This document shows positions 18,245 to 64,000 of a DNA stretch of 64,000 nt, piece after piece. The translations under genes and the position numbers were made by a program. The first letter of the stretch is position 1; each line of letters starts with the position of its first letter. The notes under the pieces are model-generated. The model made no database searches. It was not told the origin of the DNA and worked only from the letters and a program-made list of their open reading frames with translations. The stretch comes from Eledone cirrhosa (Eukaryota), in NCBI GenBank assembly GCA_964016885.1, contig OZ024742.1, positions 33,976,001 through 34,040,000 of the forward strand, written 5' to 3'.

Positions 18245-18249
18245 TATAT

Positions 18250-18506: not shown

Positions 18507-18549
18507 GTCAAAGTTCTTTCGTCACACCTTCTGTGACCTCTTCAGTGAC
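18507..18549 (-). ncRNA. Minimal type I hammerhead candidate
   Basis: Reverse complement of 18707-18749. Confidence 0.55.
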
Positions 18550-19223: not shown

Positions 19224-19499
19224 TATATATATATATATATATATATACAAATGGGATTCCCCGAAGAGTCTTTGGAGTAACGTTACTCGATAGGGTGCAA
19301 GATGAGCTGCTGATGTGTTGGTTGCGTGTACAGCTAATTTTGCGCTGTCGAATGATGGTGTGTGTATTTATGTGCCCCCCTCAACGCGTGTGCTTCAATA
19401 AGTGCCAGGTCTGTGTGTATATCTGGATGCTTGTGGGATCTGCTGGTGAAATTTGTGGGTAGTTGTGCTCATTAGTGAGTATGCGTTGTGTAGATCTAG

Positions 19500-36500: not shown

Positions 36501-38516
36501 GACCCTGTGCACAGTGCACAGCGGGTAGGTTAATGTTAATGAGGCAGGGACCCTGTTCACAGTGCACAGTGGGTAGGTTAATGTTAATGAGACAAGGACC
36601 CTGTGCACAGTGCACAGTGGGTAGGTTAATGTTAATGAGACAGGGACCCTGTGCACAGCCCACAGTGGGTAGGTTAATGTTAATGAGACAAGGACCCTGT
36701 GCACAGTGCACAGTCGGTAGGTTAATGTTAATGAGACAGGGACCCTGTGCACAGTGCACAGTCGGTAGGTTAATGTTAATGAGACAGGGACCCTGTGCAC
36801 AGTCCACAGTCGGTAAGTTAATGTTAATGAGACAGGGACCCTGTTCACAGTGCACAGTGGGTAGGTTAATGTTAATGAGACAGGGACCATGTGCACAGTG
36901 CACAGTCGGTAGGTTAATGTGAAAGAGACAGGGACCCTGTTCACAGTGCACAGTGGGTAGGTTAATGTTAATGAGACAGGGAGCCTGTGCACAGTGCACA
37001 GTCGGTAGGTTAATGTTAATGAGACAGGGACCTTGTGCACAGTGCACAGTCGGTAGGTTAATGTTAATGAGACAGGGACCCTGTGCACAGTGCACAGTGG
37101 GTAGGTTAATGTTAATGAGACAGGGACCCTGTGCACAGTGCACAGTCGGTAGGTTAATGTTAATGAGGCAGGGACCCTGTGCACAGTCCATAGTCGGTAG
37201 TTTAATGTTAATGAGACAGGGACCCTGTGCACAGTGCACAGTGGGTAGGTTAATGTTAATGAGACAGGGACCCTGTGCACAGTCCACAGTCGGTAGGTTA
37301 ATGTTAATGAGGCAGGGACCCTGTGCACAGTCCATAGTCGGTAGTTTAATGTTAATGAGACAGGGACCCTGTGCACAGTGCACAGTCGGTAGTTTAATGT
37401 TAATGAGACAGGGACCCTGTGCACAGTGCACAGTCGGTAGTTTAATGTTAATGAGACAGGGACCCTGTTCACAGTGCACAGTGGGTAGGTTAATGTTAAT
37501 GAGACAGGGACCCTGTGCACAGTGCACAGTCGGTAGTTTAATGTTAATGAGACAGGGACCCTGTGCACAGTGCACAGTCGGTAGTTTAATGTTAATGAGA
37601 CAGGGACCCTGTTCACAGTGCACAGTGGGTAGGTTAATGTTAATGAGACAGGGACCCTGTGCACAGTGCACAGTCGGTAGTTTAATGTTAATGAGACAGG
37701 GACCCTGTGCACAGTGCACAGTCGGTAGTTTAATGTTAATGAGACAGGGACCCTGTGCACAGTGCACAGTCGGTAGGTTAATGTTAATGAGACAGGGACC
37801 TTGTGCACAGTGCACAGTCGGTAGGTTAATGTTAATGAGACAGGACCCTGTGCACAGTCCACAGTGGGTTGGTTAATGTTAATGAGACAGGGACCCTGTG
37901 CACAGTGCACAGTCGGTAGGTTAATGTTAATGAGACAGGGACCTTGTGCACAGTGCACAGTCGGTAGGTTAATGTTAATGAGACAGGGACCCTGTGCCAG
38001 TCCACAGTCGGTAGGCTAATGTTAATGAGGCAGGGACCCTGTGCACAGTCCACAGTGGGTTGGTTAATGTTAATGAGAGAAGGACCCTGTGCACAGTGCA
38101 CAGTGGCTAGGTTAATGTTAATGAGACAGGACCCTCTGCTCAGTGCACAGTGGGTAGGTTAATGTTAATGAGACAGGGACCCTGCGCACACTGCACAGTC
38201 GGTAGGTTAATGTTGATGAGGCAGGGACCATGTGCACAGTGCACAGTGGGTAGGTTAATGTTAATGAGACAGGGACCCTGCGCACAGTGGACGGTCGGTA
38301 GGTTAATGTTAATGAGACAGGGACCCTGTGCACAGTCCACAGTCGGTAGGTTAATGTTAATGTGGCAGGGACGCTGTGCACACTGCACAGTCGGTAGGTT
38401 AATGTTAATGAGACAGGGACCCTGCGCACAGTGCACGGTCGGTAGGTTAATGTTAATGAGACAGGGACCCTGTGCACAGTCCACAGTCGGTAGGTTAATG
38501 TTAATGAGGCAGGGAT
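21537..38516. repeat. 48-bp satellite/minisatellite array, ~354 units
   Basis: Consensus cagt(g/c)cacagt(g/c)ggtaggttaatgttaatgagacagggaccctgtgca. 16-aa periodicity in the ORF track. Rare 47- or 49-bp units. Confidence 0.99.
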
Positions 38517-41996: not shown

Positions 41997-42230
41997 ATAA
42001 TCTAGCTGTCGTCTGTTCTACAGCGTAGATGTAATTCACTTCGCGCAGAAGTTTTGTTCAAATTTATTGCGGAAATTTTGTAAGTTCAATTTTAATTTTG
42101 ATACTATTGTGTAGCTTGACCCTCCGCCTGAACTGTCAAGCGGTGGGTCAGCTCATCTTTACCCCTCCTAGGGGTGAAAAACCTGTTTTTAAAAATGTTG
42201 TGGCATAAAAATTTCAATCATCTGACAGAA

Positions 42231-44145
42231 ATGTTAAACGAAGCTAACGAAAATAGTGGTGGGGACAGCGGTAAGAGTTGTAAGCTCGCACGCTTTAGTC
42301 CCCCCTTCCTTCCAGACTAACGTCATAGAGAAGGAAAGAAAAAATAAAATAAAAACAGACGAATCTGCGGAGAAAAATGACGAAAACACACATCTGGACA
42401 TTGATTCCAACAACGAAAAAAAAAAATTTGAAAAATTGCATGACAATATTAATACCACAAACAAAGACACGACAAACACAAAAATAACATTTGAAAACAA
42501 CATCATAACAGAAAGCAAAGCAGACGACAAAGTCAATACCAATAATATGTCTTGTGCACAAACAACAAAGAAATCTTTGACATATATACCTGAAAATATT
42601 TCAGATGTGGCACAAAGAATTACAGACGCCAAACAATACATAACTGAAGGAGAAAATGGTATTTTATCGGTAAAAATGCCTCAAGAACTCACCAAACACA
42701 TTGAAAGTCGAACGGTCGTTTTCCGCACCATCAACAACATTTCTAAAAAACCTGAACAGCCAACTCAAACACAAATCAAAACAGTACTTACAGAAGTACT
42801 TAAGGAAACCACTTTCATAAGAAAAGACAAACTGTATGGAAGCCTAGCGATTATTATGAAGAACGAATCGGCGGCAAAAAAATGTGCTTTGTCACCGATT
42901 CGTTCGAAAAATTTTACCTTTTATCCATCTTCTATGGGTAAACGAACTCAACGCATATGGCTGGATGCAATGATGCCAGATGTGGACTACTGCTGGCTCA
43001 TAGCTGGCTTCATCGATCCAGCGAATGACAACGTGATTTCCATTGGGAAAACCACAGGCAATGCGTTCAGTGGAACAGGTATAGAACTTGTAGTGCAAAT
43101 GAAGCCTGAACGCATCGCCCAAATACCCGACAGAATCCTATTAGAGGGCCACGGGTATATAAACATTAGCGTGGAGGGGAGAAGGCCGTCCGGTCATATC
43201 TGTGCAGGCAGAGGGCAGCTGAAGACGGCTTGTCCCCAACTCAACAAAAAGAAAACCCTGCTACCAACACCAGCTCCACCTCCACCACCACCACCACAAC
43301 AGATAAACAAACAACAAAACTCAGTCCCACCCAACCCGTCCCTCAGTAAAACTACACCACCACCACAACACAAACAGTCACAACACATTACTCCAAAACA
43401 AAATACAGGCCCACCCAACCCCTCACTCAATAAAACAACACAACCACCGCAGCCACAACACACAACACAGTCTAACATAGTGACATCCATCTCCCCCACA
43501 AAGAAAACCAACACGGAAACATTACCAGCAAACATACCTCTTCCCTCCAACACTGAAGATAACCCAACGAATTCGGAGGAAGAAACGGAGTCCTTCAGAT
43601 AGATTAAAAGGAAAAAAAGAAAACATGTGCAAAACACATAAGGACAAACAACCCCCACCCAAATGTCAACACAATCCAACAAAACACAAAACACCCCTCC
43701 AGCAACAAACAAAACCAAACCTGCCCCTCCCCTCTTCGAAACACTCACACCATCCGAAAAAAAGACATTACACTATACTTACATCAACAGAAACAATAAT
43801 AAATTAAATGAACTCATAAACAATAACCCTTCGGCAACAAACCGAAGGTGTAAACTTTGTTTCTTCAGAAAACTACCCACATTTAAAATTAATAAAGATC
43901 CCAATGGACCTCTACCAAAAACTAAAAAAGAATTTTAAGGAGGACGTAGAACCACCCTCTGTCAAACCCATAAACTGCGTCCTACTAAAAAGCTTTCCCC
44001 CTCCCCTTCCCCTCCCCAACACAACTCCAAACACCCCAACCCCACCACACACTGACGACCCCACACCACCACAAGACATCCCTTCACCCAACACCCCCGA
44101 CCCATGGAAGTCGTGCGACCCGAACCCCAGCAAGCAGAAAGTTAG
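42231..44145 (+). pseudogene. E1 ORF1 (zinc-knuckle protein), disrupted
   Basis: Homologous to E3 ORF1. Knuckle degenerate (GHICAGRGQLKTAC). Stop at 43600-43602 plus frameshifts. Confidence 0.85.
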
Positions 44146-44178
44146 GTCTCTACACTCTCCTTTGGCTTTGCCGCTCAC

Positions 44179-47100
44179 ATGGATGTGTTAAGAGTAGGAT
44201 GTTTGAATGCACGTGGCCTGGGCTCAACTTGGAAGCAAGCAAAGCTTCTAAATGACCTCAGGTCATGTGGTATAAATGTAATGGTTATCTGTGAGACTCG
44301 GATCAGCGTCGTGCGGCAGCTGACCCCTACCTTCGATGACTTTGAGGTGCATGCATATCTCTGTCAACCTGGAGGTGTGGGTGGGGTTGTCGTACTGCTG
44401 CAAAAACACCTGGGTCTTGCCGTACAGGTTGTTCACTCGGACCCGGAAGGTCGTTTGTTGGTGCTAGACGTTGGCAGTAGTGAAGGTGCGGCCTTGAGAC
44501 TGGTTGCCGTCTACTCCTCTTTCGGAGCTGAACGGCCCGACTTCTTCCAGCGTTTGGAGACTTTTCTGGGAACGTCGCGTTCCCTGCTTCTAGCAGGGGA
44601 TTGGAATGACATCCTAGATGCACGTTGGGACTATGCAGGAGCATGTCCTAATAGAGGGGGTGTAACAGCCTCAAGGGGTTACTCGACCGTTTTAACTTGG
44701 TCGATAGATATCGACTAAATTTTCCAACTGTGCCTACCTGGACTTGGACGAACCACAGTGGTCAATCTAGATCGTACTTAGATAGATTCTTAGTTAGAAG
44801 TAAGGATAGGGACATATTAAGCTGTCCAGAAATGCTCACGGTTAGCTATACGAATCACAAATTAGTGACCTGCGTAGTCAATCTCGAGAAAACACATAAA
44901 CAGGGTCCCGGTTACTGGAAACTTAATTTGTCTTTACTGGCAAAAGAGACTTACAGAAACCGGATTAGCAGATTAGTTAAGGAGAGGTTGACGGGTGCAA
45001 TCGTCAACAACCGATGGTGGGCATCTCTCAAAAGAGAGATTAGAACAGAATCAATAAGTTATAGCAAGATGTTAGCTGCCGATAGGAATAGAAACGAGAA
45101 AGAATTAACAGGTAAATTAGAAGAGGCAATCAAGAGCGAAGAAGTGGCCAGAGTGCTGGCATCGAGGACGGCCTTGAACCAGTTTTTCGATGCAAAGCAC
45201 GAAGGCTGCGTCATTCGAAGTAAAATACGTGCTCTAGGTAATGAGGGGGCCAAAGCCGTTGGCTGGGCCCGCGTGACAGAAGCTAAGAGTGGAAATCGAT
45301 CCACCATCCGGTCGTTGCAAAACGAGGATGGACGGGTGATCCGGGAGCCTAAGCAGATGTGCGAGGCCTTTCAAAGGCACTTTCCCCGATTATACGGGGG
45401 GGGGGGGAGGGTCCGGGCAGGGACGTGGATTTCGGTCCATAGTCAACGGCCTGCCGCGTCTCTCGAGCGAAGAGGCACAGTCCTGCGAGGGACCAATCTC
45501 GGCTGATGAGATCGGGGATGCGCTGAACCAATGCAGCAGACGCAAAACTCCAGGTCTCGATGGTATACCTTACGAACTTTATTTAGCAATGCCGGTCTTC
45601 TTCTCCGAACTCCTCGAAGCGGTCTACTGCAATTGGCAGCAGAACGGGAGAATTCCTTGTTCTGTAGCCATGGTCGTAGTCTCGCTGGTGAGGAAGGACG
45701 AGAATAAGGGGGATAGTATAAATAATTTTCGGCCCATAACCCTGCTAAACACAGAGTTAAAGATGTTGGCCAAGGTGTTAGCAAAGAGGTTGGCGCTTGT
45801 CGTGGCTGGCCTGATGGGAGATGCGCAGACATGTGCTATCCCATCCAGGTCCATTCACGATAAGCTCCAGCTCATGCGATACATCATAGAGAGGGTTGGC
45901 AACAAACCCGGCTTCGGTGGGGCCCTGATCAACTTGGATCAGTCTAAGGCCTTCGATAGGGTCGACCATGGTTGGCTGGGTGCGGTGCTAGCGGCGGCTG
46001 GGTTCGGTCCTGTTTTCAGAGGCTGGATCACTGCCTTACATAGCAACCACATCTGTTCTAGGATCAAGGTGAACGGCTACCTTCCGAAGCCGTTCGAAAT
46101 CACACGATCCATTCGACAGGGGTGCCCTCTCTCCTCCCTTCTGTACGTATTGACTCTCGAGCCTTTACTGAGGAAGTTGGAGTTGTTGCAGGGTATCCCC
46201 CTGGAACCAGGATTGAGCAAAGAGGTGTCGGCCTACGCCGATGACGTAACAGTAATGGTATCGACCGACTCGGAGATCGAGGCGATCGGTACCTTACTGG
46301 AGGATTACGAAAGGTTGTCAGGAGCGAAACTGAACCGGGAAAAATCCATCGGGCTGCAACTCGGAACGTGGAGAGGCAGACCGATGCCTCCCGACGGTGT
46401 CGTCGGACACTGGACGGAGGGCCCGGTAAAGTTGCTTGGGGTCTGGTTTGGACCGGACCTCCAGGTGGATAAGAACTGGGACGAGGTTACGAAAAAGGTG
46501 TTTGCACTCACCCAGAAATGAGCCAAGTGTAAGCTGTCCCTAAAAGGCCGGGCGGAGGTGGCGAACATTTACATAGCGTCCGTCACTTACTACCGCCTGA
46601 CTGTCGTGCCTTGCCCTAAGGAAACACTCACCACCATGGAACGCATGCTCTTCCAATTTCTTTGGAAGAAGCGCCCTCCTATGGTGAGAAGATCCATATG
46701 CTGCCAACAACCTTCGAAAGGAGGGCTGGGGATGCCGTGGTTGATGATGCGTAGGCACGCATTAAGGCTACGGCACCTACAGGTATTCCTCACTGGTCAA
46801 CCGGTGTGGGCTCCGTTCGTGAAACGAGCCTTTCCGAGACTCGTCTCGCTCACCGAGCTGCAGTCCTGGGTCAAGCAAAGATCCGGAAAACTGGGAGACT
46901 GGCACACTGAGTGTGCTAAGGAGCTCAGGGCTCTCTGGCAAGCGGGCCAGGCCATCGGTGGAGAATCCACCTCATCATTCTATAGAGGGCTGGTGGCTAG
47001 CAGGGGCGATGACACCCTTGGAGAGTCGCTGGACATGGAAGAGGACGAACTGGCCAGCCTGTTCGGTAGGACTTTCGGCCCGGGACCAATGGACAACTTC

Positions 47101-47615
47101 CAGAAGTCACTAGCCTGGCAGTGCTACCGGGGGCTCTATCCGTTCGAGAGAGGCTCTACAGACACGGGCGCCCGGGCAGGGATCCCTCGAAAAAGATTTG
47201 CCCTAGATGCGTGCGTCACGAAGAAACCGTTGCGCACGCATTGGTGCAGTGTCCGGGCGTGGCTGATCTGTGGGGCTACGCCGAACGACTGCTGTCGCGG
47301 GTGGCGCCGATTCGATTGACCGCCGAGTCCGTGATGACAATCAAACCGCCTCCCCTCTTCACAAAGGAAGCAAAGGCGGTTTTTCTGTGCGTAATAGCCA
47401 TGTTGAAAGAGGTTTTTTGGTGGACACGATTGAAAGGTCTGAGGTCAGGCAACTTCCTCTCTGGCTATAGTCTGGTCTACTTCTTCCGATATCACTTCGG
47501 AAGAAGGATAAGAATGGAGAGAGAGGTGCTTGGCCACAGCCAGTTTTATGAAGGGTGGGTGATAGTGGCGAGAATGGCTCGTGTAAATGGGCCTTCTCTG
47601 TATACCATCCTGTAG
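44179..47615 (+). pseudogene. E1 ORF2 (APE endonuclease + RT), disrupted
   Basis: LNARGL, GDWN, SYLDRF, RPITLLN, DQSKAFDRVDH, RQGCPLS, YADD and CPRC..ETVAHAL..C spread over several frames. Confidence 0.92.
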
Positions 47616-47829
47616 GTAAAGAAGTGAAGGAGAGGGGAGCACCTTCTCCATGTGCTCCCCGGGCAAAGGATTGCACACTTTTTCGGGGGTGTGTGCAACC
47701 CCCATCATGTCACCTCCCTTTTGAGGTTGTTTTCGATTATTTTCATTTTATACCCTTTTTACTCGATTGTATGTAAACTCCCCCTTTGTATTTGTCCCTT
47801 CTTTTTATGCCTTTATGGTAAATAAAGAA

Positions 47830-47863
<34 letters not shown>

Positions 47864-47884: not shown

Positions 47885-49519
47885 TAGAACCGGGACTGCG
47901 CAAAGCGGCGTCGGCTTATGCTGACGATGTGACGGTAATGGTGTCGAGCACCTCGGAAATCGGGGTGATCGGCAACTTACTGAAAGAATACGAAACGCTG
48001 ACGGGAGCAAAACTAAACCCGGACAAGTCAGTCGGTTTGCAACTCGGTACGTGGAGAGGCAAACCGATGACGTCCGACAGCGTCGTTGGACGCTGGACGG
48101 ACGGACCGGTGAAATTGCTCGGGGTCTGGTTCGGTCCAGACCTACAGGTGGAGAACGAGGTCACGGCCAAGGTGTTTGCACTCACCCAGAAGTGGGCAGA
48201 GTGCAAACTGTCCTTGAAAGGTCGAGCGGAGGTGGCGAACACTTTCATAGCGTCCGTCAGCTACTACCGCTTGACTGTCGTGCCTTGTCCCCGTGAACAC
48301 CTCGCCAAGATGGAACGCATGCTCTTCCAGTTTCTGTGGAAGAAGCAGGCTCCGCTGGTGAGGAGATCCGTCTGCTGTCAGCACCCTTCCAACGGAGGGC
48401 TGGGAATGCCGTGGCTGATGATGCGCAAACATGCGCTGAGGCTGCGGCATCTCCAGATATTCCTCACCGACCCCCAACCGGTCTGGGCACCGTTTGTGAG
48501 ACAGGCTTTCCCACAGCTCGTCTCGCTGACGGAGCTTCAGTCCTGGGTGAAGAAAAGACCGAAAACGATGGGCGCCTGGCACATTGAATGCGCTCAGGCG
48601 CCCACAGTCCTCTGGCTAGCGGGCGCAGCAATCAGTGGAGACTCCACTTCGACATTCTATAGAGGGATTGTACGTTAAAAGGGCGATGACGTGCTCGGAG
48701 AGACTCTGGGCGTCGAAGACGATGAGCTCACCAGTCTGTTTGGTAGGACTTTCCGCCCGGAACCTATGGACAACTTCCAGAGGCCCCTGGCCTGGCAGTG
48801 CTACCGAGGAGCTCTACCGGTTCGTGACAAGATCTACAGGCACGGACGCCCCGGCAGTGATCCTTCCAAGAGGACGTGTCCAAGATGCGCGCAGGACATT
48901 GAAACATCACGCAATTGTACACTGCCCGGGCGTAACCGACCTGTGGAGCTATGCAGAACAACTGCTGTCGCGTATGGGACAAATCCAGTTGACTGCCGAG
49001 TCCAGAGTAAGGATCAAACCGCCAGCCTCTTTCAAAAACGAAAGAGAGGCGGTTTTCCTCTGTACGGTGGCTATGGTGAAAGAAGTTATATGGTGGACGA
49101 GGTTGAGAGGACTGAGGACAGATTCCTTTCTCTCCGGACAACAATTGATTCCCTTCTTTAAGTATCACTTTAGAAGGAGAATCAGGGTGGAGAGAGAGGT
49201 ACTGCACCCCAGTAAATTTACTGAAAGGTGGGTGAATGAAGCGAAAATGGCCCGAGTGATTGGGCCTTCTCTGTTTATAAGCCTGTAGGTTGAGGAAGAG
49301 AGCAAAAGGAAGAAAGGAGCACTTGTACAACACGCTCCTGGAGTTGAGGGTTGTTCTATCGACGGGGTATTAAACAACCCATTTGTGGCTCCTGCCCCTA
49401 TTGGGGATTTCGATTGTTGTAATTGTTTGTTTTTATATTTTTACACAACTGTATGTAAAATCCCCGGCATGTCTTTGTATTGTCCCCTTTTCTCGTGCGC
49501 CCTTGTGGCTAATAAAGAA

Positions 49520-49520
<1 letters not shown>
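47885..49520 (+). mobile_element. E2, 5'-truncated L1/Tx1 copy (divergent subfamily)
   Basis: Starts at EPGLRKAASAYADD directly after (TATC)n. Stop at 48676-48678 and a frameshift. Divergent 3'UTR ending aataaagaaa. Confidence 0.92.
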
Positions 49521-49607: not shown

Positions 49608-49789
49608 GAGTAAGTTCTGTTTAAATTTCTATAGAAATTCTTGTCTGATAACTTTAATTTTTGTACCATTTTGTAGAGGGACTGCCAGGTCAAACTTTGA
49701 TCTGGTCAGTCTCTCAAAATATTCTACGCCTTTAGGCGAAATAGTTAAAAAAAAAGTTTTTTCTTGCTGAAAAGTCAATATTTTTTTAA

Positions 49790-51577
49790 ATGGCCGAAGC
49801 TTCTTCACCAAAATTCGAAGGAGGAAAGGGGAAGATGAACTTACAGCTTCCCCCTGCCACTGTCACAGTAGCAGAGGTCAAGAAGATAGGTCAGCCAGAG
49901 GAAGAATTCTCTCCACCTGTTAACCGACAACTTGACGTTGCCATGGCAACAACCCAAAGAACCAGCAGCAACAGCAACAACAACAACAATGCGACGGACG
50001 AAAACAACACCAATAACAATAACAATAACAACAACAAGACCAATAACGGTGACAACAACAACAATGATAACAACAACACCACCAACGACAACAACAACAC
50101 AAACAAACAAAATTTCTCCTTCGCCGAGACGACAAGGAAAACCCTCGACTATCTGCCAGTAGATATAACAAAAGCGAAGGAGCTACTGGCGGATGCGAAA
50201 AAATATATAGTGTACGGGGAAAATGGTTCATTCACAATTCATTCCCCCCCGGAACTAAAAAGCCAGAGACTCCTAAACACGGTCATGTTTAGGACAATCT
50301 CGAACAAAAGTAAAAAACCAGCTCAACCATCACAGAGCGAGATAGAGCTGGTTTTAAAAGACGTCATGAAGGACATCACCTTCATTCAGAAGGATAGACT
50401 CTACGGGAGTCTATCCATTCTCATGAAGGACAGGGACACAGCAGTGAAACTGTCCATCAAACCAATCACATCCACCGCATACACCTTCTACCCTACGTAC
50501 ATGGGTAGAAGAACACAAAAAATAAAAATCCACACCATCCTGCCGATTATGGACATATGGTGGGTTTTGACAGGTTTTCTGGACCTGGAGGATGACATGC
50601 TGGTGTCCATGGGAAAGGCATCGGGTGACGCGTTCAGTGGAACGAGCCTCGAACTTGTAGTTCAAATGAGGCCCGAAAGGATCGCCCAGATCCCTGAACG
50701 CGTCATACTGGATGATCTAACCTTCATCAACATTACCGTTGAGGGTAGACGGCCCTCGTGTTACCTCTGCGGAACCAGAGGTCACCTGAGGGCTGTCTGT
50801 CCCCAACTTAATAAGAAAACCCCAATCCTGCCTACACCACCAACAACTGCACAACCAACACAATCACCACAACTACCACTACAAAAACAACCACCACAGC
50901 TCAAACCAAAACAAAACAATGTCCAACCCATCCCCTCCACTCAAAAAACAAAAACAATTTCCAAAACACCCGTACCGCAAACACAACCCGAAAATATACC
51001 CCTCCCCTCCAACGCGGAAGATGACCCTAGTTCGTCGTCAGACGAGGAGGAGCACTTCCACACAATCAAAAGAAAAAAAAGAAAACACACCTCAGACACA
51101 CAAATGAAAAAAAACCCTCCCCAAAACATAACACTGACACCAACACAAAAGAGCTCACAACAGCAAACAAAAAACACCACACAAAAACAAAAACATGCAT
51201 ACACATACATAAATACAAGAAACAAAAAACTGTTAAACATTGTGTACAACAACAATCTAATAAAAACACAAGGGCCTAACTTCACCCAGGCAGGGGATTT
51301 CCCCCACCTCAAAATGATTAAGGCCCCACAGGACACCTATAAAACTTTAAAAAACAATTTTAAAGAGGACGTGGGTCCCCCCTGCGTCGGGCCCATTAAC
51401 CGCGTCCTCCTAAAAAACTATCCCACCCCCTCCCCAAACACCCTCACAACTCCAAGCTCCCCAACCACACAACACACTGATGCCCCCACACTTCCACAAA
51501 CCACCACCCCACCCAACAACCCATCCCCCACCCTAATGGAAATTGTGCAGCCCGATACCCGAGACGCAGAGAGGTAA
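49790..51577 (+). CDS. E3 ORF1p, 595 aa, CCHC zinc knuckle nucleic-acid-binding protein
   Basis: Open ATG-TAA frame. CYLCGTRGHLRAVC fits CX2CX4HX4C. Asn-rich and Pro/Thr/Gln-rich low-complexity regions, basic KRKKRK. Confidence 0.9.
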   Translation: MAEASSPKFEGGKGKMNLQLPPATVTVAEVKKIGQPEEEFSPPVNRQLDVAMATTQRTSSNSNNNNNATDENNTNNNNNNNNKTNNGDNNNNDNNNTTNDNNNTNKQNFSFAETTRKTLDYLPVDITKAKELLADAKKYIVYGENGSFTIHSPPELKSQRLLNTVMFRTISNKSKKPAQPSQSEIELVLKDVMKDITFIQKDRLYGSLSILMKDRDTAVKLSIKPITSTAYTFYPTYMGRRTQKIKIHTILPIMDIWWVLTGFLDLEDDMLVSMGKASGDAFSGTSLELVVQMRPERIAQIPERVILDDLTFINITVEGRRPSCYLCGTRGHLRAVCPQLNKKTPILPTPPTTAQPTQSPQLPLQKQPPQLKPKQNNVQPIPSTQKTKTISKTPVPQTQPENIPLPSNAEDDPSSSSDEEEHFHTIKRKKRKHTSDTQMKKNPPQNITLTPTQKSSQQQTKNTTQKQKHAYTYINTRNKKLLNIVYNNNLIKTQGPNFTQAGDFPHLKMIKAPQDTYKTLKNNFKEDVGPPCVGPINRVLLKNYPTPSPNTLTTPSSPTTQHTDAPTLPQTTTPPNNPSPTLMEIVQPDTRDAER

Positions 51578-51601
51578 GTGCCTTTTCTCTTCACCACCAA
51601 C

Positions 51602-54600
51602 ATGGCTATGCTAAGAGTAGGCTGTTTAAATGCGCGTGGCCTGGGCTCAACTTGGAAGCAAGCAATGCTTCTAAATGACCTCAGGTCACAACGTATAGAT
51701 GTGATGGTTATTTGCGAGGCCCGGATCAGCAACGTGCGACAGCTGGCCCCCACCTTTGATGACTTTGAGATGCACGCATCTCTCTGTCAGCCCGGAGGTG
51801 CGGGTGGAGTTGTCGTTCTGCTGCAAAAACATCTGGGTCTCGCAACACAGATGGTACATTTGGACCCGGAGGGTCGACTAGTGGTTCTGGACCTTGGCAG
51901 TGGTAAAGGCGGAGCGTTTAGGTTGGTAGCCGCCTACGGCCCTTTCGGGTCAATGCGGCCGGACTTCTTCCATCGTCTGGAGACTTTTCTAGGGACGTCC
52001 CGCTCCTTGCTATTAGTGGGGGACTGGAATGGTATCCTAGATGCACGCTGGGACTACGTAGGGGCCTGCCCCGATAGAGAGGGGTGTAATAGCCTCAAAG
52101 GGTTAATCGGTCGATTTGACCTGGCCGATAGATATCGACTAGATTTTCCGACTGCGCCAACCTGGACTTGGGCAAATCGTAGCGGATCATCTAGGTCGTA
52201 CCTAGATAGGTTCTTAGTTAGAATTAAGGATAAGGACTTTTTAAGTTGTCCAAAAATGCGCATTGTTGGCTATTCAGACCACAAATTAGTGACCTGCATG
52301 GTCAACCTTGACAGAACTCATAGACAGGGCCCCGGTTACTGGAAGCTCAACTTGTCCTTGCCGGCAAGTAGAGCCTACAGGAATCGGATTAGTACGTTAG
52401 TTAAGGAACGGTTGACTGGAGCGATCGTCAACAGCAGGTGGTGGGTATCTCTAAAGAGAGAGATTAGAGTAGTCTCGATAGAATTTAGTAAGGTTCTAGC
52501 TGCGGATAGGAATAGGAAGGAAAGGGAGCTAATAGATAGAGTAGAAGAGGCAATTAGAAGCGGCGACGTGGCCAGAGTGCTAGCGTCGAGAACGGCTTTG
52601 AGCCAGTTTTTCGACGCGAAGCACGAAGGCTGCGTTGTCCGAAGTAAAATACGTGCTCTAGGGAACGAGGGGACCAAAGCTGTTAGCTGGGCCCGCGTGA
52701 CAGAGGCCAACAGTGGAACTAAATCCACCATCCGGTCTTTGCGAGACCTGGATGGACGGGCGATTCTTGAGCCTAAGCAGATGTGTGAGGCCTTTCAAAG
52801 GCACTTTTCCCGACTGTTCGGGAGGGGCGGGGAGCCGGTTGGGAACGTGGACTTCGGTCCATACCTCGACGGCCTGCCGCGCCTCTCGGACAGGGAGGCG
52901 AAGTCCTGCGAGGAGCCGATCTCGGCCGCTGAGATAGAGGACGTGCTGAGCCAATGCGGCAAACGCAAATCCCCGGGTCTCGATGGTCTTCCTTACGAAT
53001 TATATCTAGCTATGCCGGACTTGTTCCCCGATCTCCTCGAGGCGGTCTACTGCAACTGGCAACAGAACGGGAGAATTCCCTGTACTGTGACCAAGGGCGT
53101 AGTCACGCTAGTGAGGAAGGACGAGAACAAGGGGGACGAAATAAGTAACTTCAGGCCCATAACACTGCTAAATACAGAGTTACAGATTTTGGCCAAGGTG
53201 CTAGCAAAGAGGTTGGCGCTTGTCGTGGGCAACCTGGTGGGAGATGCGCAGACATGCGCTATCCCGTCCAGGTCCATCCATGACAACCTCCACCTCATGC
53301 GATACATCATAGAGAGGGTTGGGAACGAACCCGGCTTTGGTGGGGCTCTGATCAACTTGGATCAATCTAAGGCGTTCGATAGGGTCGACCATGGTTACCT
53401 GGGTGCGGTGCTAGCGGCGGCAGGCTTCGGACCCGTTTTCAGGGGCTGGATCACTGCTATGCACAGCAGCCGCATCTGCTCTAGGGTCAAGGTGAACGGC
53501 TACCTCTCGGAGCCGTTCAAAATCGCGCGGTCCATCCGACAAGGGTGCCCTCTCTCCTCCCTTCTGTATGTGTTGACTCTCGAGCCACTACTGCGGAAGT
53601 TGGAGTTGTTGCAGGGCATCCCTTTGGAACCGGGATTGCGGAAAGCGGTGTCGGCCTACGCCGATGACGTGACAGTAATGGTGTCGACGGCCTCCGAAAT
53701 CGAGGCGGTCGGCACCTTACTGGAGGAGTACGAAAAGTTCACAGGGGCTAAGCTGAACCGGGACAAGTCGATCGGTTTGCAACTCGGCACGTGGAGGGGC
53801 AGACCGATGCCCTCCGATAGCGTCGTCGGACGCTGGACGGAGGGCCCGGTGAAGTTGCTCGGGGTCTGGTTCGGACCGGACCTCCAGGTGGAGAAAAACT
53901 GGGCGGAGGTTAAAACAGGGTGTTTGCACTGACCCAGAAGTGGGCCAGTTGCAAACTATCCCTGAAAGGTCGGGCGGAGGTGGCGAACACCTACATAGCG
54001 TCCGTCATCTACTACCGCCTGACCGTAGTGCCCTGCCCAAGGGAAACCCTCACCAAGATGGAGCGCGCGCTCTTCCAATTCCTTTGGAAGAGGCGGGCTC
54101 CTATGGTGAGGAGATCCATCTGCTGTCAACACCCTTCGAAAGGAGGGCTGGGGATGCCGTGGCTAATGATGCGTAAACACGCATTAAGGCTACGGCACCT
54201 CTACGTATTCCTCACCGGACAACCGGTGTGGGCCTCGTTTGTGAGACGAACCTTTCCCAGACTCGTCTCACTCACCGAGCTGCAATCCTGGGTCAAGCAA
54301 AGACCGAGAAAACTGGGCGCCTGGCACACTGAGTGTGCCCAGGCGCTCACCGCCCTCTGGCAGGCGGATCCGGTTATCAGTGGAGACTCCACCGCAACAT
54401 TCTATAGAGGGCTGGTACGCAGCAGGTGCGACGACGCCCTCGGAGAAGCCCTAGACATGGAGGAGGACGAACTGGCCAGCCTGTTCGGTAGGACATTCAG
54501 CCCGGGACCTATGGACAACTTCCAGAAGTCCCTGGCCTGGCAGTGCTACCGAGGGGCTTTACCCGTTCGAGAAAGGCTCTACAGACACGGGCGCCCGGGT

Positions 54601-55038
54601 AGGGACCCCGCCAAAAAGATCTGTCCCAGATGCGTGTGCGACGAGGAAACCGTTGCACACGCATTAGTACACTGCTCGGGCGTAGCCGATCTGTGGGGCT
54701 ATGTCGAACAACTGCTGTCAAGGGTGGGACCGATCCGGTTGACCACCGAGTCTATTGTAATGATCAAGCCGCCTCCCCCCTTCAAAGATGAAGCAGAGGC
54801 GGTGTTTCTGTGCGTAATAGCCATGGCGAAAGAGGTTGTATGGTGGACGCGTCTGAAAGGACTGAGGTCGGGCACCTTTCTCTCTGGCCAACAACTGGTC
54901 CGTTTCTTCCGATATCATTTCGGAAGAAGGATCAGGATGGAGAGAGAGGTGCTGCACCCCAGCCGTTTCTATGAAAGATGGGTGAAAGTGGCGAGAATGG
55001 CCCGTGTGAATGGGCCTTCACTCTACATCAGACTATAG
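51602..55038 (+). CDS. E3 ORF2p (APE endonuclease, RT, C-terminal cysteine motif); single 1-nt deletion near 53912
   Basis: ORF-track pieces 51578-53932 and 53920-55038 join. Catalytic motifs present: N, E, GDWN, LDRF, SDH, PGLDG, KAFDRV, QGCPLS, YADD. Confidence 0.88.
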
Positions 55039-55517
55039 GTGAGGAAGATGAAAGACCAAGGGAGCACCCCTTCTCTGTGCTCCTGAGGAGAAGGGTTGCA
55101 CACTTTTTTCGGGGGTGTGTGCGACCCCCCAAGGCGCCTCCTCTCTATTGAGGATTTTGTTAAAAATTTTATTTTTTGTTATATCTTATTTTATTTTTAT
55201 ATTTTGTTATTGCCTCCTCCTTATTGAGGACGCCTTTTTGTGTAAACTCCCCCCTTTGTACTTGTCCCACTTTTGATGCCCTAGTGGCAAATAAAAGAAA
55301 TATATCTATCTATCTATACACACACGCGTGAAACTTGGTGAGTAAGTTCTGCTTAAATTTCTATAGAAATTCTTGACTGTAAACTTTTATTTTTGTACCA
55401 TTTTGTAGACGGACTGCCAGGTCAAATTTTGATCTGGTCAGTCTCTCAAAATATTCTACCCCTTTAGGCGAAATAGTTAACAAAAATTTTTTTTTGAAAA
55501 GCTAACATTTTTTTTCA

Positions 55518-57284
55518 ATGGCTGAAGCTTCTTCACCAAAATTCGAAGGAGGAAAGAGGAAGATATGCTTACAGCTTCCCCCTGCCACTGTCATAGTAGC
55601 AGATGTCAAAGACAAATGTCAGCCAGAGGAACGATTTTCTCCACCTGCTGACCGACAACTTGACGTTGCTATGGCAACAAACCAAACAACAAGCGGTACC
55701 AGCAACAACAACAACAACAATACTACGAACGAAAACAACACCAACAACAATAACAATAACAACAAGACCAATAACTGTGATAACTACAACACCATTAATT
55801 ACAGCAGCAACACAAACAAGGAAAAGGTCTCCTTCGCCCAGACGGCAAGGAAAACCCTGGATTATCTGCCAGTAGATATAAGCAAAGCGAAGGAGCTACT
55901 GGCAGATGCCAAAAAATACATAATGTACGGGGAAAATGGATCATTTTCGATCCCCCCCCCCCGGAACTAAAAAGCCAGAGAGTCCGAAACACTGTCATGT
56001 TTAGGACAGTCTCAAACAAAAGCAAAAAACCAGCTCAACCATCAAAGAGTGAGATAGAGCTGGTTTTAAAAGATGTCACGAAAGACATCATATTCATTCA
56101 GAAGGATAGACTCTACGGGAGTCTATCCATTCTCATGAAGGACAGGGACACAGCAGTGAAACTGTCCATAAAACCAATTACATCCACCGCATACACATTC
56201 TACCCTACGTACATGGGTAGAAGAACACAAAAAATAAAAATTCACACCATCCTGCCGATTATGGACATATGGTGGGTATTGACAGGTTTCCTGAACCTAG
56301 ACGATGACACACTAATATCCATGGGAAAGGCATCGGGTGACGCGTTCAGTGGAACGAGCCTCGAACTTGTAGTTCAAATGAGGCCCGAAAGGATCGCCCA
56401 GATCCCAGAACGCGTCATACTGGATGATCAAACTTTTATCAACATTACCGTTGAGGGTAGGTGGCCCACGTGTTGCCTCTGTGGAGCCAGAGGTCACCTG
56501 AGGGCTGTCTGTCCTCAACTTAATAAGCAAACCCCAATCCTGCCTACACCACCAACAACTGCACAACCAACACAATCACCACAACCACCACTACAAAAAC
56601 AACAACCACAGCTCAGACCAAAACAAAACAATGTGCAACCCATCCCCCCATTAAAAAATAAAACAATTTCCAAAACACCCGCACCGCAAACACAACCCGA
56701 AAATCTACCCCTCCTCGCCAACGCGAAAGATGACCCTCGTTCGTCGTCAGACGAGGAGGAGCACTTCCACACAATCAAAAGAACAAAAAGAAAACACACC
56801 TCAGACACACAAATGAAACAACCCCTCCCCAAAACATAACACAGGCACCAACACAAAAGAGCACACAACAGCAAACAAAAAACAGCACACAAAAGCAAAA
56901 ACATGCATACACATACATAAACACAAGAAATAAAAAACTGCTAAACATTGTGTACAACAACAATTTAGTAAAAACCCAAGGGCCTAACTTCACCCAGGCA
57001 GGGGATTTCCCCCACCTCAAAATGATTAAGGCCCCAGAGGACACATATAAAATACTAAAAAACAACTTTAAAGAGGACCATCCTCCCCCCTGCGTCGGGC
57101 CCATTAACCGCGTCCTCCTAAAACAATTCCCCACCCCCTCCCCAAACACCCACACAACTCCAAACACCCCAACCACACAACACACTGGTGCCCCTACACT
57201 TCCACAAACCACCCCCCCACCCAACAACCCACCCCCACCCTCATGGAAATTGTGCAGCCCGATACCCGGGACGCAGAGAGGTAA
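55518..57284 (+). pseudogene. E4 ORF1, frameshifted
   Basis: Pieces 55518-55970, 55997-56839 and 56950- align to E3 ORF1. Confidence 0.9.
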
Positions 57285-57314
57285 GTGCCCTTTCTCTTCA
57301 CCACCAACATAGCT

Positions 57315-60300
57315 ATGCGAAGAGTAGGCTGTCTAAATGCGCGTGGCCTGGGCTCAACTTGGAAGCAAGTAATGCTTCTAAATGACCTCAGGTCACAACG
57401 TATAGATGTGATGGTTATTTGCGAGGCCCGGATCAGCAACGTGCGACAGCTGGCCCCCACCTTTGATGACTTTGAGATGCACGCATCTCTCTGTCAGCCC
57501 GGAGGTGGGGGTGGGGTTGTCGTTCTGCTGCAAAAAATATCTGGGTCTCGCAACACAGACGGTAAATTTGGACCCGGAGGGTCGACTAGTGGCTCTGGAC
57601 CTTGGCAGTGGTGAAGGCGGAGCGTTTAGGTTGGTAGCCGTCTACGGCCCTTTCGGGTCAATGCGGCCGGACCTCTTCCATCGTCTGGAGACTTTTCTAG
57701 GGACGTCCCACTCCTTGCTATTAGTGGGGGGACTGGAATGGTATCCTAGATGCACGTTGGGACTACGTAGGGGCTTGTCCCGATAGAGAGGGGTGTAATA
57801 GCCTCAAAGGGTTAATCGGTCGATTTGACCTGGCCGACAGATATCGACTATATTTTCCGACTGCGCCAACCTGGACTTGGGAAAACCTCAGCGGATCATC
57901 TAGGTCGTACCTAGATAGGTTCTTAGTTAGAAATAAGGATAAGGACTTTTTAAGTTGTCCAAAAATGCGCATGGTTGGCTATTCAGACCACAAGTTAGTG
58001 ACCTGCATGGTCAACCTTGACAGAACGCATAGATAGGGCCCCGGTTACTGGAAGCTCAACTTGTCCTTACCGGCAAGTAAGGCTTACAGGGACCGGATTA
58101 GCACTTTAGTTAAGGAGCGGTTGACGGGCGCCATTGTCAACAGCAGGTGGTGGGGATCTCCCAAAAGAGAGATTAGAGTAGTCTCTATAGAATTTAGTAA
58201 GGAGTTAGCCTCAAATAGAAATAGGAAGGAAAGGGAGTTGGTAGATAGTGTAGAAGAGGCAATTAGAAGCGGCGACGTGGCCAGAGAGCTAGCGTCGAGA
58301 ACGGCCCTGGGCCAGTTCTTCGACGCGAAACACGAAGGCTGCATCGTCCGAAGCAAAATACGTGCTCTGGGAAACGAGGGGACCAAAGCTGTTAGCTGGG
58401 CCCGCGGGACAGAAGCCAAAAGAGGGAGCAGATCCACTATCCGGTCTTTGCGAGACCAGGATGGATGGGTGATCCTTGAACCTAAGCAGATGTGCGAGGC
58501 TTTTCAAAAGCACTTTGCCAGATTGTTTGGAAGGGGCGGGGAGTCGAATGGGGAAGTGGACTTCGGTCCATACCTTGACGGCCTGTCGCGTCTCTCGGAC
58601 AGGGAGACGAAGTCCTGCGAGGAGCCGATTTCAGCCGCTGAGATAGAGGACGTGCTGAGCCGATGCGGCAAACGCAAATCCCTGGGTTTCGATGGTCTTC
58701 CATACGAACTATATCTAGCTATGCCGGACTTGTTTCCCGATCTCCTCGAGGCGGTCTACTGCAACTGGCAACAGAACGGGAGAATTCCCTGTGCTGTGAC
58801 CAAGGGCGTAGTCACGCTAATGAGGAAGGACGAGAGCAAGGGGGACGATATAAATAATTTCAGGCCCATAACTCTGCTAAATACAGTTACAGATTTTGGC
58901 CAAGGTGCTAGCAAAGAGGTTGGCGCTTGTCGTGGGCAACCTGGTGGGAGATGCGCAGACATGTGCTATCCCGTCCAGGTCCATCCACGACAACTTCCAC
59001 CTCATGCGATACATCATAGAGAGGGTTGGGAACGAACCCGGCTTTGGTGGGGCCCTGATCAACTTGGATCAATCTAAGGCGTTCGATAGGGTCGACAATG
59101 GTTACTGGATGCGGTGCTAGCGGCGGCAGGCTTCGGACCCGTTTTCATGGGCTGGATCAATGCCATGCACAGGAGCCGCATCTGCTCTAGGGTCAAGGTG
59201 AACGGCTACCTCTCGGAGCCGTTCGAAATCGCGCAGTCCATCCGACAAGGGTACCCTCTCTCCTCCCTTCTGTATGTAATGACTAGAGCCACTGCTGCGG
59301 AAGTTGGAGTTGTTGCAGGGCATCCCGTTGGAACCGGGATTGCAGAAAGCGGTGTCGGCCTACGCCGATGACGTAACAGTAATGGTGTCGACGGCCTCGG
59401 AAATCGGGGCGATCGGCACCTTACTGGAGGAGTACGAACTTTTTACAGGGGCTAAGCTGAACCGGGACAAGTCGATCGGTCTGCAACTCGGCACGTGGAG
59501 GGACAGATCAATGCCCTCCGATGGCGCCGTCGGGCGCTGGATCGGACCAGACCTCATGTTTGAGAAGAACTGGGGTAAGGTAACGAACAGGGTGTTTGCA
59601 CTGACCCAGAAGTGGGCCGAGTGCAAACTGTCCCTGAAAGGTCGTGCGGAGGTGGCGAACACTTATATCGCGTCCCTCATCTACTACCGCCTGACCGTTG
59701 TGCCTTGCCCAAGGGAAACGCTCGCCAAAATGGAGCGCACACTCGTCCAATTCCTTTGGAAGAAGCGGGCTCCTATGGTGAGGAGATCCATCTGCTGTCA
59801 ACACCCTTCAAAAGGAGGGCTGGGGATGCCGTGGCTAATGATACGTAAACACGCATTAAGGCTACGGCACCTCCAGGTATTCCTCACCGGTCAACCGGTG
59901 TGGGCCCCGTTTGTGAGGCGAGCCTTTCCCAGACTCGTCTCGCTCACCGAGCTGCAATCCTGGGTCAAGCAAAGACCGAGAAAACTGGGCGCCTGGCACA
60001 CCGAGTGTGCCCAGGCCCTCACGGCTCTCTGGCAGGCGGACCCGGCTGGTGGTTAGCAGGTGCGACGACGCCCTCGGAGAAGCCCTGGCGTGGAGGAAGA
60101 CGAACTGGCCAACCTGTTCGGTAGAACATTAAGCCCGGTACCCATGGATAACTTCCAGAGGTCCATGGCCTGGCAGTGCTACCGAGGGGTTCTGCCCGTT
60201 CGAGAAAGGCTCTACAGACACGGGCGCCCGGGTACGGACCCCTCGAAAAAGATCTGTCCCAGATGTGTGTGCGACGAGGAAACCGTTGCACACGCATTGG

Positions 60301-60669
60301 TACACTGCTCGGGCATTGCCGATCTGTGGGGCTATGTCGAACAACTGCTGTCAAGGGTGGGACCGACCCGGTTGACCACCGAGTCTATTGTAACGATCAA
60401 GCCCCCCCCTCTTCAAAAACGAAGGAGAGGCGGTGTTTCTGCGCGTAATAGCCATGGCAAAAGAGGTTGTATGGTGGACGCGTCTGAAAGGACTGAGGTC
60501 AGACACCTTTTTCTTTAGCCAACAACTGGTCCGTTTCTTCCGATATCATTTCGGAAGAAGGATCAGGATGGAGAGAGAGGTGCTGCACCCCAACCGTTTT
60601 TATGAAAGATGGGTGAAAGTGGCGAGAATGGCCCGCGTGAATGGGCCTTCACTCTACATCAGACTATAG
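57315..60669 (+). pseudogene. E4 ORF2, disrupted
   Basis: APE and RT motifs spread over more than six fragments. Confidence 0.9.
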
Positions 60670-60961
60670 GTGAGGAAGATGAAAAATCAAGGGAGCACCC
60701 CCTCTCTGTGCTCCTGAGGAGAAGGGTTGCACACTTTTTTCGGGGGTGTGCGCGACCCCCCCCCCCTCACGGCGCCTCCTCCCTATTGAGGATTTTGTTA
60801 TTAAATTTATTTTTGTTATATTTTATCTTATTTTTATATCTTGTTATTGCCTCCTCCTTATTGAGGACGCCTTTTTATGTAAACTCCCCCCATTGTACTA
60901 GTCCCACTTTTTGATGCCCTGGTGGCAAATAAAAAGAAAGTTATCTATCTATCTATCTATC

Positions 60962-63900
60962 TTGATAGAGTGAGACACGCTTCACATCGGCTCTGCTATT
61001 CTATCGGAATTTACCCTTACTATAGCAAGTACCAGTGCATTTTTTCTGTGCAACACATTTGGAACACTTACCCCTGTTATTTAGGGAAACATTTTTACAT
61101 TTACCCCCTTTTAAGGGGGTAAAATAAATAACTATTTTTCTGTAAAACTTCTTTCTTGGCCGCATGGCGGGAAAGATGGCAGACATGTCTGCCATTAGCT
61201 CTGCCACGCCCCCCAAGTCTGAAGAACAAAAAATGGATACAACAAAACATTTTTGTTTTAACAAAAGACAAAGAAACAGCACAGAGGCTTTCCCTAAGCC
61301 CACTCACATCAACAGCATACAGTTTCTATCCCTCCTACATGGGTAGAAGAACTCAGAGAATCAAAATACAGACAATGCTGCCCACAATGGACTTCTGGTG
61401 GGCTATTGCTGGCTTCATAGACATGGGCGAGGACACAGTGCTGTCAATGGGGAAGGCATCTGGAGATGCGTTCCTGGGAATGGACCTCGACCTACTAGTA
61501 CAAATGAGGCCCGAAAGAATAGCGCAAATCCCGGATCGCATCTGGCTGGATGACCTCACCCCAATATATATAATTGTAGAGGGGAGAAGACCAGCATGCT
61601 ATTCATGCATGGAAAGGGGACACGTTAAGGCTAACTGCCCGAATCGTATCCCCCAAAAAGGACTATTGCCCACACCCACCACAAACAGTACACCAACACC
61701 ACCCACCTCCAAAAATACACTAACACCACCAACACACACAGCAAACAAAATACAGACACCATCAACCACAAGCACAACACAAACATCACCACCACCATCA
61801 CCAACCACAAGCACGACACAAACATCACCACCACCACCACAAAACACATTCCAAACAAATAATATAAAAAACAGCAACAATTCTACCCCTCCCGCAAAAA
61901 AAACCCACCAGACACCACGTCCCTCCCACCTAGCGCTGAAGAGTTTCCCCCAACTTCTGAAGAAGAAGGAGGAGAAGCCTTCAGACAAGTTAAAAGGAAA
62001 AAAACGAAAGCACACACCCAGCACACCACAACAACAAATAACCCACACACAAACACCAACTCCAATCAAAAACACCCACCCTCGACAAACAAAAATAAAT
62101 CTGCGCCTCCCCTCTTCGAAACATTGACAGCATCACAAAAAAAGACTTTACAATACACATATATAAATAAAGAAAACAAAAAACTGTTTAAATTAATAAT
62201 CAATAGCCCTTTGGTGCAGACCGAAGGGCCAAACTTTATCTCAACAGAGAACTTTACTCATTTAAAAATGATAAAGGTCCCTCTGGACCTTTATCGTTCC
62301 TTAAAAGAACAATTTAAACAGGACGTGAGCCCCCCTGTTTAAAACCGTTAAATCGTGTCCTCTTGGAAGATTTCCCCCATAACCTCTCCTCTCCCTAACA
62401 CAACTCCAAATACCCCAACGCCACCACACTCGGATACCCCCACACCACCACAAAAAATCCCTCCACCCAACACACCCGACCCCATGGAAATTACACAACC
62501 CGGACTCCGGGACGCGGAGAGGTAGGTGCTTTTCTTTCTTCACTTTCAACACCAAAACAGATCAATTGAGAGTTGGTTGTTTGAATGCGCGTGGCCTGGG
62601 CTCAGCTTGGAAGCAAGCAAAGCATCTAAGTGACCTGAGGTCACGAAGTATAGATGTGATGGTTGTTTGCGAGAGTCGGATCAGCAGCGTGCGACAGCTG
62701 ACTCCCGCCTTCGATGACTTTGAGATGCACGCATCTCTCTGTCAACCCGGAGGTGGGGGTGGGGTTGCCGTACTGCTGGATAAACGTCTGGCTCTCGACG
62801 TACAGATTGTTCACTCGGACCCGAGGGGTCGATTACTGGTTCTGGACGTCGGAGGCGGTGAAGGCGGGGCTTTCAGACTGGTCGGTCTTTATGCCCCCTT
62901 CGGGGCTTAAAGAGCCGACTTCTTCCAGCGTCTGGAGACTTTTCTAGGAACGTCGCGTTCCCTGCTTTTAGTGGGGGACTGGAATGGAATCCTAGATGCG
63001 CGTTGGGACTATGCAGGGGCATGTCCCGATAGAGGGGGGTGTAGCAGCCTCAAGGGGTTACTCGATCGATTCGACCTGGTCGATAGATTTCGACTAGATT
63101 TTCCAACTGTGCCAACCTGGACTTGGGCAAACCGCAGTGGTCAATCTAGATCGTACCTCGATAGGTTTTTGGTTAGGAGTAAGGATAGGGACGCATTTAG
63201 TTGTCCAGAATTGCTCATGGTTGGCTATTCAGATCACAAATTAGTGACCTGCGTGGTCAACCTTGATAGAACGCATAGACAGGGTCCCGGTTACTGGAAG
63301 ATGAACTTGTCCTTGCCGGCAAAGGAAGCTTACAGGAACCGGATTAGTAGCTTAGTTAAGATGCGGTTGACGGGAGCGATCGTCAACAGCAGGTGGTGGG
63401 TATCTCTAAAGAGAGAGATTAGAGTAATTTCGATAGGTTACAGTAAGGAACTAGCGGCGAATACAAATAGGAGGGAAATGTAGTTGACAGATAAACTAGA
63501 ATAGGCGATTAGGAGCGGAGACGTGGCCAGAGTGTTAGCGGCGAGAACGGCGTTGAGCCAATTCTTTGACGCGAAGCACGAAGGCTGCGTTGTCCGAAGT
63601 AAAATACGTGCTTTAGGAAACGAAGTGACCAAAGCTGTTAGCTGGGCCCGCGTGACAGAAGCCAAGAGTGGGATTAGATCCACCATTCGGTCTTTGCGAG
63701 ACCAGGATGGACGGGTGATCCTTGAACCTGAGCGGATGTGCGTGGCCTTTCAAAGGCACTTTGCTCGACTGTTCGGAGGGGGCGGGGGGCCGGACGGGGA
63801 TGTGGACTTCGGTCCATACCTCGACGGTCTACCGCGTCTTTCGAGCGGCGAAGCGGAGTGCTGCGAAAGGCCAATCACAGCCACTGAAATCGGGGAAGCG

Positions 63901-64000
63901 CTCAGCCAATGCAGCAGACGCAAATCTCCGGGCCTCGATGGTCTACCATACGAACTTTATTTAGCTATGCCGGTCTTGTTCTCCGAACTCCTCGAGGCTG
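60962..64000 (+). mobile_element. E5, another subfamily, internally deleted ORF1, runs off window
   Basis: Distinct 5'UTR. ORF1 (ATG 61176 to stop 62525) lacks much of the N-terminal half but keeps CYSCMERGHVKANC. ORF2 from ~62566 has stops at 62908 and 63481. Confidence 0.9.

Follow-up and report, generated by a model that had tools for sequence, protein, structure and literature searches.

A conserved 5′ splice-site motif at the ORF1 end of a microsatellite-inserted LINE family in Eledone cirrhosa

Splice signals in long interspersed nuclear elements (LINEs) are usually treated as liabilities, because LINEs must copy unspliced RNA. How, then, should one read a LINE in which the junction of its two open reading frames (ORFs) looks like a strong 5′ splice site? 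The question is raised by a 64,000-nucleotide stretch of the Eledone cirrhosa genome (assembly GCA_964016885.1, contig OZ024742.1, positions 33,976,001 to 34,040,000, forward strand; hereafter the window, in whose coordinates positions are given), where the LINE copies E1-E5 lie head-to-tail from 42.0 kb to the window end with (TCTA)n between them. In E3, the ORF1 stop codon is embedded in GAGAG/GTAAGT (slashes mark putative splice boundaries) and ORF2 ends on an acceptor-like TAG/G, the two bracketing a candidate intron of 3,465 nt (51574-55038). A first-pass annotation, made from the letters of the window, had proposed that removal of ORF2 would give an ORF1-only mRNA with the same stop position. 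The sites that it had read in E1-E5, including a competing CAG just upstream of the E3 TAG, are all at the positions it gave (Table 1).

Copies of the family were fetched by degenerate patterns and coordinates, a tree was built from 67 ORF2-spanning copies, and 14 lineages with at least two copies each were compared (the lineage names A1-A4, B-H and E2a-d were coined in this analysis). Between these lineages, four-fold sites differ by up to 49%. Sequence comparison revealed that donor positions −1, +1, +2 and +6 are invariant in all 14 lineages, and that +5 is G in 12, the remaining two being ties between two copies. The motif keeps the form G/GTRAGT or G/GTAGGT throughout. Position −2 and those from +7 onward vary; the conserved span, from −1 to +6, is that of the donor consensus. 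As a yardstick, 51 of 231 four-fold sites (22%), 28 of 83 two-fold purine sites (34%) and 13 of 50 arginine third positions of ORF2 are invariant over the same lineages. A hand product from this yardstick puts the chance that +1, +5 and +6, which are not fixed by coding, would all persist at ~0.01-0.025. The ORF1 stop itself alternates among TAA, TAG and TGA, yielding GTAAGT, GTAGGT and GTGAGT, respectively. Moreover, the motif is present in every ORF1 phase: lineage B has it in phase 0, lineages E2c, F and F2 have it in phase 1, and phase 2 also occurs. In B, E2c, F and F2 the ORF1 stop is displaced by 1-12 codons through a frameshift, and the motif is still there. Its persistence in all three phases thus indicates independence from the stop codon.

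Scored with a general metazoan splice-site matrix, the ORF1-end donor ranks first of ~280 GTs in 15 of 18 representatives. GTAAGT, GTGAGT or GTAGGT stands at the donor in 124 of 135 correctly anchored copies (141 were parsed for donor context, and six mis-anchored ones were left out). The divergent AG/TTAGGT that the first-pass annotation had noted in E1 is indeed present there and is private to that copy, as three other lineage C copies read AG/GTAGGT. In a control set of distant L1-like elements with adjacent ORFs, none of 12 has a top-ranked donor at the ORF1 stop. Judged from these alignments, the ORF1-end donor is a selected nucleotide motif, more than a by-product of an Arg-stop codon pair, and this selection makes a role involving the splicing machinery plausible.

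Is the other end of the candidate intron under similar selection? ORF2 stops with TAG in 18 of 20 lineage representatives and with TAA in D and D3. The first-pass annotation had noted TAG/G at all four ORF2 ends in the window and had itself named another stop codon as evidence against an intron; in lineage D, the seven ORF2-spanning copies end on TAA, yet the ORF1 donor is kept. A change from TAG to TAA is within the neutral range defined by two-fold purine sites, 34% of which are fully invariant. The pyrimidines 5′ of the ORF2 stop encode PSLYISL-like tails and exceed the synonymous expectation in one of 18 representatives, and a similar hydrophobic tail occurs in relatives of 38-40% identity, which stop later. 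Over the last 12 ORF2 codons, three of ten silent sites are invariant (p = 0.50), and there is no extra constraint. In addition, a competing AG lies 7 nt upstream of the TAG in 10 of 18, and the E3 TAG ranks only 7th to 16th. As far as sequence comparison goes, the candidate acceptor cannot be told apart from a chance match; splice-site likeness beyond chance is seen, by conservation and ranking, for the donor. By eye, no conserved branch-point match was seen in a 20-row alignment. The possibility that TAG/G reflects a hairpin spanning the ORF2 stop was also considered; local folds form in single sequences, the alignment contained no covarying structure, and the hairpin was rejected as unsupported.

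What would the joined product look like, and has it left genomic copies? Reading frames across the junction were tallied in 16 lineages, with A4 (one copy, phase unclear) dropped and D having no TAG to join. The same ORF1 C-terminus is rebuilt in five of the 16, among them E3/E4 and lineage C, to which E1 belongs; the stop-preserving joint proposed for the window copies is therefore a trait of certain lineages. A stop follows within 0-3 codons in nine of the 16, all the phase-shifted ones (B, E2c, F and F2) included, while joining adds 27-78 codons in seven; A2 and A3 have lost the stop altogether. Retention of a near stop to this extent has a probability of ~0.04, as estimated post hoc and by hand over seven clusters that are related, and is a mild point for splicing.

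Genome-wide, the junction pattern gave no match, as against 1,545 exact matches to the unspliced E3-type donor and 20,673 to a degenerate ORF2-end pattern in the 3.0-Gb genome. A pattern of donor, GT and non-A gave two matches, both point mutants with ORF2 next, and a broader junction pattern for lineages A, C and old B gave none. A-group donors followed by foreign sequence were matched twice, both times by one-base indels with ORF2 after, and none of 20 copies picked by their 5′ untranslated region (5′UTR) carries the junction. Genome-wide, these searches are valid for A, C and old B. HAL1 elements consist of ORF1 only; retroposition of the proposed spliced RNA would yield a HAL1-type element, and none was found in the tested lineages. 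These results rule out a sizeable non-autonomous ORF1+3′UTR family there, such as the first-pass annotation had envisaged. Splicing itself is not thereby refuted, since Drosophila copia makes spliced RNA in abundance although no genomic read of that form was found (bioRxiv 10.1101/2023.05.27.542554). One copy missing most of ORF2 (L322:2433-2440) proved to be no splice junction but an internal deletion, which leaves ~300 nt in place after the donor and 80 nt ahead of the stop. Contigs of runs X1, X4, X5 and X6 (kind unrecorded), compared with E3, gave no donor-to-stop or 5′UTR joint among the 15 listed of 245 joints; comparing the X4 contigs with a natural tandem pair carrying both sites likewise gave no such joint, with one joint and six of 48 loose ends listed. 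One X4 contig crosses the ORF2 stop unspliced, and the summed X4 depth seemed lower over ORF2 than over ORF1 and the 3′ end. Because contigs drop rare forms and their depth cannot rank gene parts, none of these contig results counts for or against splicing.

A second donor-like motif occurs near the 5′ end of the element. Full-length copies begin ~28 nt ahead of the GTAAGT that E3 retains in its 5′UTR, and GTAAGT, GTGAGT or GTAGGT lies within the first 100 nt of 11 of 14 5′UTR types, either at +21 to +32 or further in, at +55 to +79; one-off variants take its place in the remaining three. The antisense strand and the 3′UTR, taken as controls, each score 1 of 14. In the E3 group, a good acceptor lies 67 nt past the 5′UTR donor and is left unspliced in full-length copies; in the other lineages no YAG occurs at a fixed distance from that donor. 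A search for spliced 5′UTR copies gave 24 pattern matches, of which the 20 inspected represent a lineage with a different, unspliced UTR. Lineages E2b, E2c and G (L145, L251 and L245) carry a strong acceptor-like YAG 32-37 nt past the ORF1 donor, just 5′ of the ORF2 ATG. It is the best acceptor in the scanned element and is absent from A, C and D; paired with the 5′UTR donor, it could yield an ORF2-only RNA.

Conserved donors lacking a constrained partner are best read as docking sites for the U1 small nuclear ribonucleoprotein (snRNP) on an RNA that must stay unspliced, and we tentatively prefer this reading while holding it at somewhat less than even confidence. In the putative model, the 5′ splice-site motif at the ORF1 end, usually together with the second one near the 5′ end, would be occupied by U1 snRNP and, in most transcripts, left unspliced. 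The docked U1 may keep the 5.7-kb RNA, which has no introns, from being cleaved or terminated too early, which would allow the full-length template to be made, and any splicing to the ORF2 stop would be a minor by-product. Precedents exist in the Arabidopsis retroelement EVD, where a U1 site serves splicing and also blocks premature termination (PMC5580714), and in mammalian cells, where Restrictor is blocked by unspliced 5′ sites (PMC12211998). Several observations weigh against U1 protection and the conservation behind it. The donor columns were found in part by means of the motif itself, which also served to pick many of the A-group copies. The sole E2d copy found reads ATAAGT, and the further E2d copies sought were all truncated or from another lineage. 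The 5′UTR motifs match poorly on the exon side and are suggestive only, because their types are related and single p-values range from 0.005 to 0.32. ORF2 of E3 contains no AATAAA or ATTAAA for the ORF1-end site to mask downstream; in 15 of 18 representatives such hexamers do occur 128-540 nt upstream of it, in A-rich coding sequence whose composition may account for them. Finally, the ORF2-end TAG ranks fourth or better of ~260 AGs in 11 of 16 TAG lineages, and with so highly ranked an AG downstream, some splicing from a strong donor is to be expected.

This last point, along with the conserved donor, the prevalence of TAG and the near stops that survive even in phase-shifted lineages, speaks for ORF2 as an optional intron whose removal would leave an ORF1+3′UTR mRNA from which ORF1p is made but which is not itself retrotransposed, comparable to the gag RNA of Drosophila copia. 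We regard this as possible though doubtful, since the TAG is retained as neutral two-fold sites are and is replaced in D, neither the pyrimidines nor the silent sites next to it are constrained, the tail recurs in relatives with a later stop, a nearer AG competes, seven lineages would gain long extensions, and no junction copies were found in the lineages searched, against so many unspliced ones. An intron used by a minority of transcripts would be compatible with U1 protection. A fuller version, which strikes us as equally doubtful, has the LINE built as a three-exon gene (5′ head, ORF1 and 3′UTR) with ORF2 as a regulated intron; the spliced RNA would then give ORF1p, and the intron-retaining RNA would give ORF2p and serve as the only template. 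It is improbable that the donor is instead spliced elsewhere, be it inside ORF2 with early polyadenylation, to the 5′UTR acceptor of the next tandem copy or to a host exon. EVD does couple splicing to early termination (PMC5580714), the top acceptor of the whole element lies in the 5′UTR for E3 and L042, copies stand head-to-tail, and such RNAs, without a 3′ tail or too long, would leave no genomic copies; against this, no alternative acceptor is conserved across lineages, and the only two A-group donors seemingly joined to foreign sequence are the indels mentioned above. Unlikely, too, is the absence of any splicing role, with the motif an inherited stop/restart context for termination-reinitiation at ORF2 or persisting by descent. 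A purine after the stop is a favoured termination context, all lineages go back to a single ancestor, and ORF2 of lineage B, which has no ATG, fits reinitiation. Termination-reinitiation is used by L1 and SART1 (PMC5972666). Mere context or descent hardly accounts for a motif that stays where the stop has moved and is conserved over the span of the donor consensus, and it leaves unexplained both the 5′UTR motifs and the lack of such donors in distant L1-like elements. In sum, the proposal of ORF2 as an intron is upheld in part: the selected donor and its plausible link to the splicing machinery stand, whereas the stop-preserving design holds for some lineages and the acceptor is no more than a candidate.

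The positions of the copies and of the parts of E3 are given in Table 1.

Table 1. LINE copies in the window and anatomy of E3
Feature	Position	Strand	Remarks
E1, lineage C	42002..47830	+	Donor mutated in E1 itself (AG/TTAGGT, 44142); ORF2 stop TAG 47613-47615, reading TAG/GTAA
E2, lineage E2a	47887..49520	+	5′-truncated; TAG 49286-49288, reading TAG/GTTGA
E3, youngest lineage	49608..55302	+	~27 nt missing at 5′ end; flanked by (TCTA)n
E4, older copy of E3 group	55320..60941	+	Donor 57281; TAG 60667-60669
E5, older form of lineage B	60963..64000	+	Cut by window end; donor AG/GTAGGT at 62522; usual ORF2 start without ATG
E3: 5′UTR donor-like GTAAGT	49610..49615	+	+28 in full-length copies
E3: T-rich acceptor-like site ending TTTTGTAG	49655..49676	+	67 nt past 5′UTR donor
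E3: ORF1, 595 aa	49790..51577	+	CCHC knuckle; C-terminus AER-stop; zf-CCHC-like clusters (high confidence)
E3: 5′ splice-site motif AG/GTAAGT over ORF1 stop	51572..51579	+	GT at 51574
E3: pyrimidine-rich spacer and ORF2 ATG	51580..51604	+	ATG at 51602
E3: ORF2 (APE endonuclease, reverse transcriptase, zf-RVT)	51602..55038	+	PF03372, PF00078, PF13966
E3: candidate acceptor, ORF2 stop TAG/G	55016..55039	+	TAG 55036-55038, then GTGA; competing CAG at 55029-55031
E3: 3′UTR with hairpins	55039..55302	+	AATAAA at 55290-55295

Among solved structures, human L1 ORF2p is the closest to ORF2 of the E3 family (E 3e-46; R2, 1e-18), and ORF1 gave no match in Pfam. L1/Tx1-type hallmarks are present, namely an ORF2 with APE endonuclease, reverse transcriptase and a C-terminal zinc motif and a separate ORF1 with a CCHC knuckle. 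The copies inspected, without a formal count, are flanked by (TCTA)n or (TTA)n tracts, a target-sequence preference as in the Tx1 clade. The putative Tx1 label rests on this architecture and on the microsatellite targeting. A 321-nt junction query matched at full length in 40 of 40 scored hits spread across chromosomes; the LINE family is large, young and microsatellite-inserted. An undisrupted ORF2 of ~1,135-1,140 open codons occurs in 12 of the 67 other ORF2-spanning copies. In the window, ORF2 of E3 carries a frameshift near 53912 and E4 has degenerated; E3 and E4 are thus relics of the design, not working elements. Relatives in metagenomes were absent from a first scan, and a second gave 35 distant loci, 27 of which were examined, yielding the 12 L1-like elements with adjacent ORFs that served as the donor control.

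Lineages D and F are inserted in (TTA)n instead of (TCTA)n (L133-L141, L144, L255-L259), a target switch inside one family, and lineage F forms arrays, with ten copies spaced 5.84 kb apart at C1:423.37-423.42 Mb. In L042, L243, L315, L316 and L048, 5′UTR/ORF1 types are paired variously with ORF2 lineages, which suggests that lineages recombine or that templates are switched between them. In lineage B, the usual position of the ORF2 ATG is taken by ATA or ACA (window 62522-62575; L168-L171, L274), and ORF2 of this lineage is open for ~1,080 codons past a length-variable G run in three of five copies, suggesting that ORF2 starts by a non-AUG restart. Lineage B was also considered as a non-autonomous family and rejected as such: its frameshift is the variable G run, which is in frame in six of 12 copies. 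Elsewhere in the window, a 48-bp tandem array (21537-38515; 354 copies, 91% identity) yields long minus-strand open frames, and long near-perfect inverted repeats at 13083-13773, 14836-15411, 18354-18903 and 16593-19224, one 325-bp pair at 98.8% identity, are possibly miniature inverted-repeat transposable elements or foldback elements.

The class of the element is already known. Kibi, Koshi and crocodilian Tx1, which target (TC)n, (TTC)n and (TTCC/TTTC)n, respectively (PMC4494074, PMC3812793), share with the E3 family two ORFs, an APE endonuclease with reverse transcriptase, and insertion into simple repeats. They differ in their targets from the E3 family, which is inserted at (TCTA)n or, in lineages D and F, at (TTA)n, and the accessible portions of their descriptions mention no splice signal. 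An annotation of O. vulgaris records 13 recently active L1-Tx1 families, with splicing unmentioned in the part available (PMC13282606). In the open-access literature, apart from supplements and Repbase, we found neither a selected ORF1-end donor nor ORF2 as an intron described for L1/Tx1, and within that literature such a donor appears new for this group. A family that keeps selected donors through about 45% silent-site divergence would be using the splicing machinery in some way.

Human L1, likewise of L1 type, also has splice donors in the 5′UTR, matched here by donor-like motifs, although it leaves retroposed spliced copies (SpIREs) from those donors (PMC5860796), whereas none was found in the E3 family from either donor, and the main donor of the E3 family lies instead at the ORF1 end. 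The placement of a candidate U1 site close to where the structural ORF ends recalls Arabidopsis EVD and the shGAG RNA of Ty1/copia elements; the EVD site both splices and suppresses premature termination (PMC5580714). EVD, however, is a long-terminal-repeat (LTR) element with a short intron coupled to early termination, whereas the candidate intron of the E3 family is the whole of ORF2. If its unpaired U1 sites are real, they would reveal a route by which a retroelement without introns evades premature-termination surveillance. Should ORF2 prove to be an intron, it would provide a new way of setting the ORF1p:ORF2p ratio. A parallel to the latter is Drosophila copia, whose spliced RNA is ~ten-fold above the full-length RNA and for which no genomic spliced read was found (bioRxiv 10.1101/2023.05.27.542554). 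Both would make the mRNA for the structural protein by splicing out the enzyme genes, as a candidate mechanism in the E3 family, and in neither was a genomic spliced copy found, for the E3 family in the lineages searched. Copia is an LTR element in which splicing has been shown, whereas in the non-LTR E3 family splicing is a prediction from sequence, with an unconstrained acceptor. Should the three-exon reading hold, copia-style subgenomic expression would have arisen independently in a non-LTR element, and splicing would be a switch of transposition for the host or the element.

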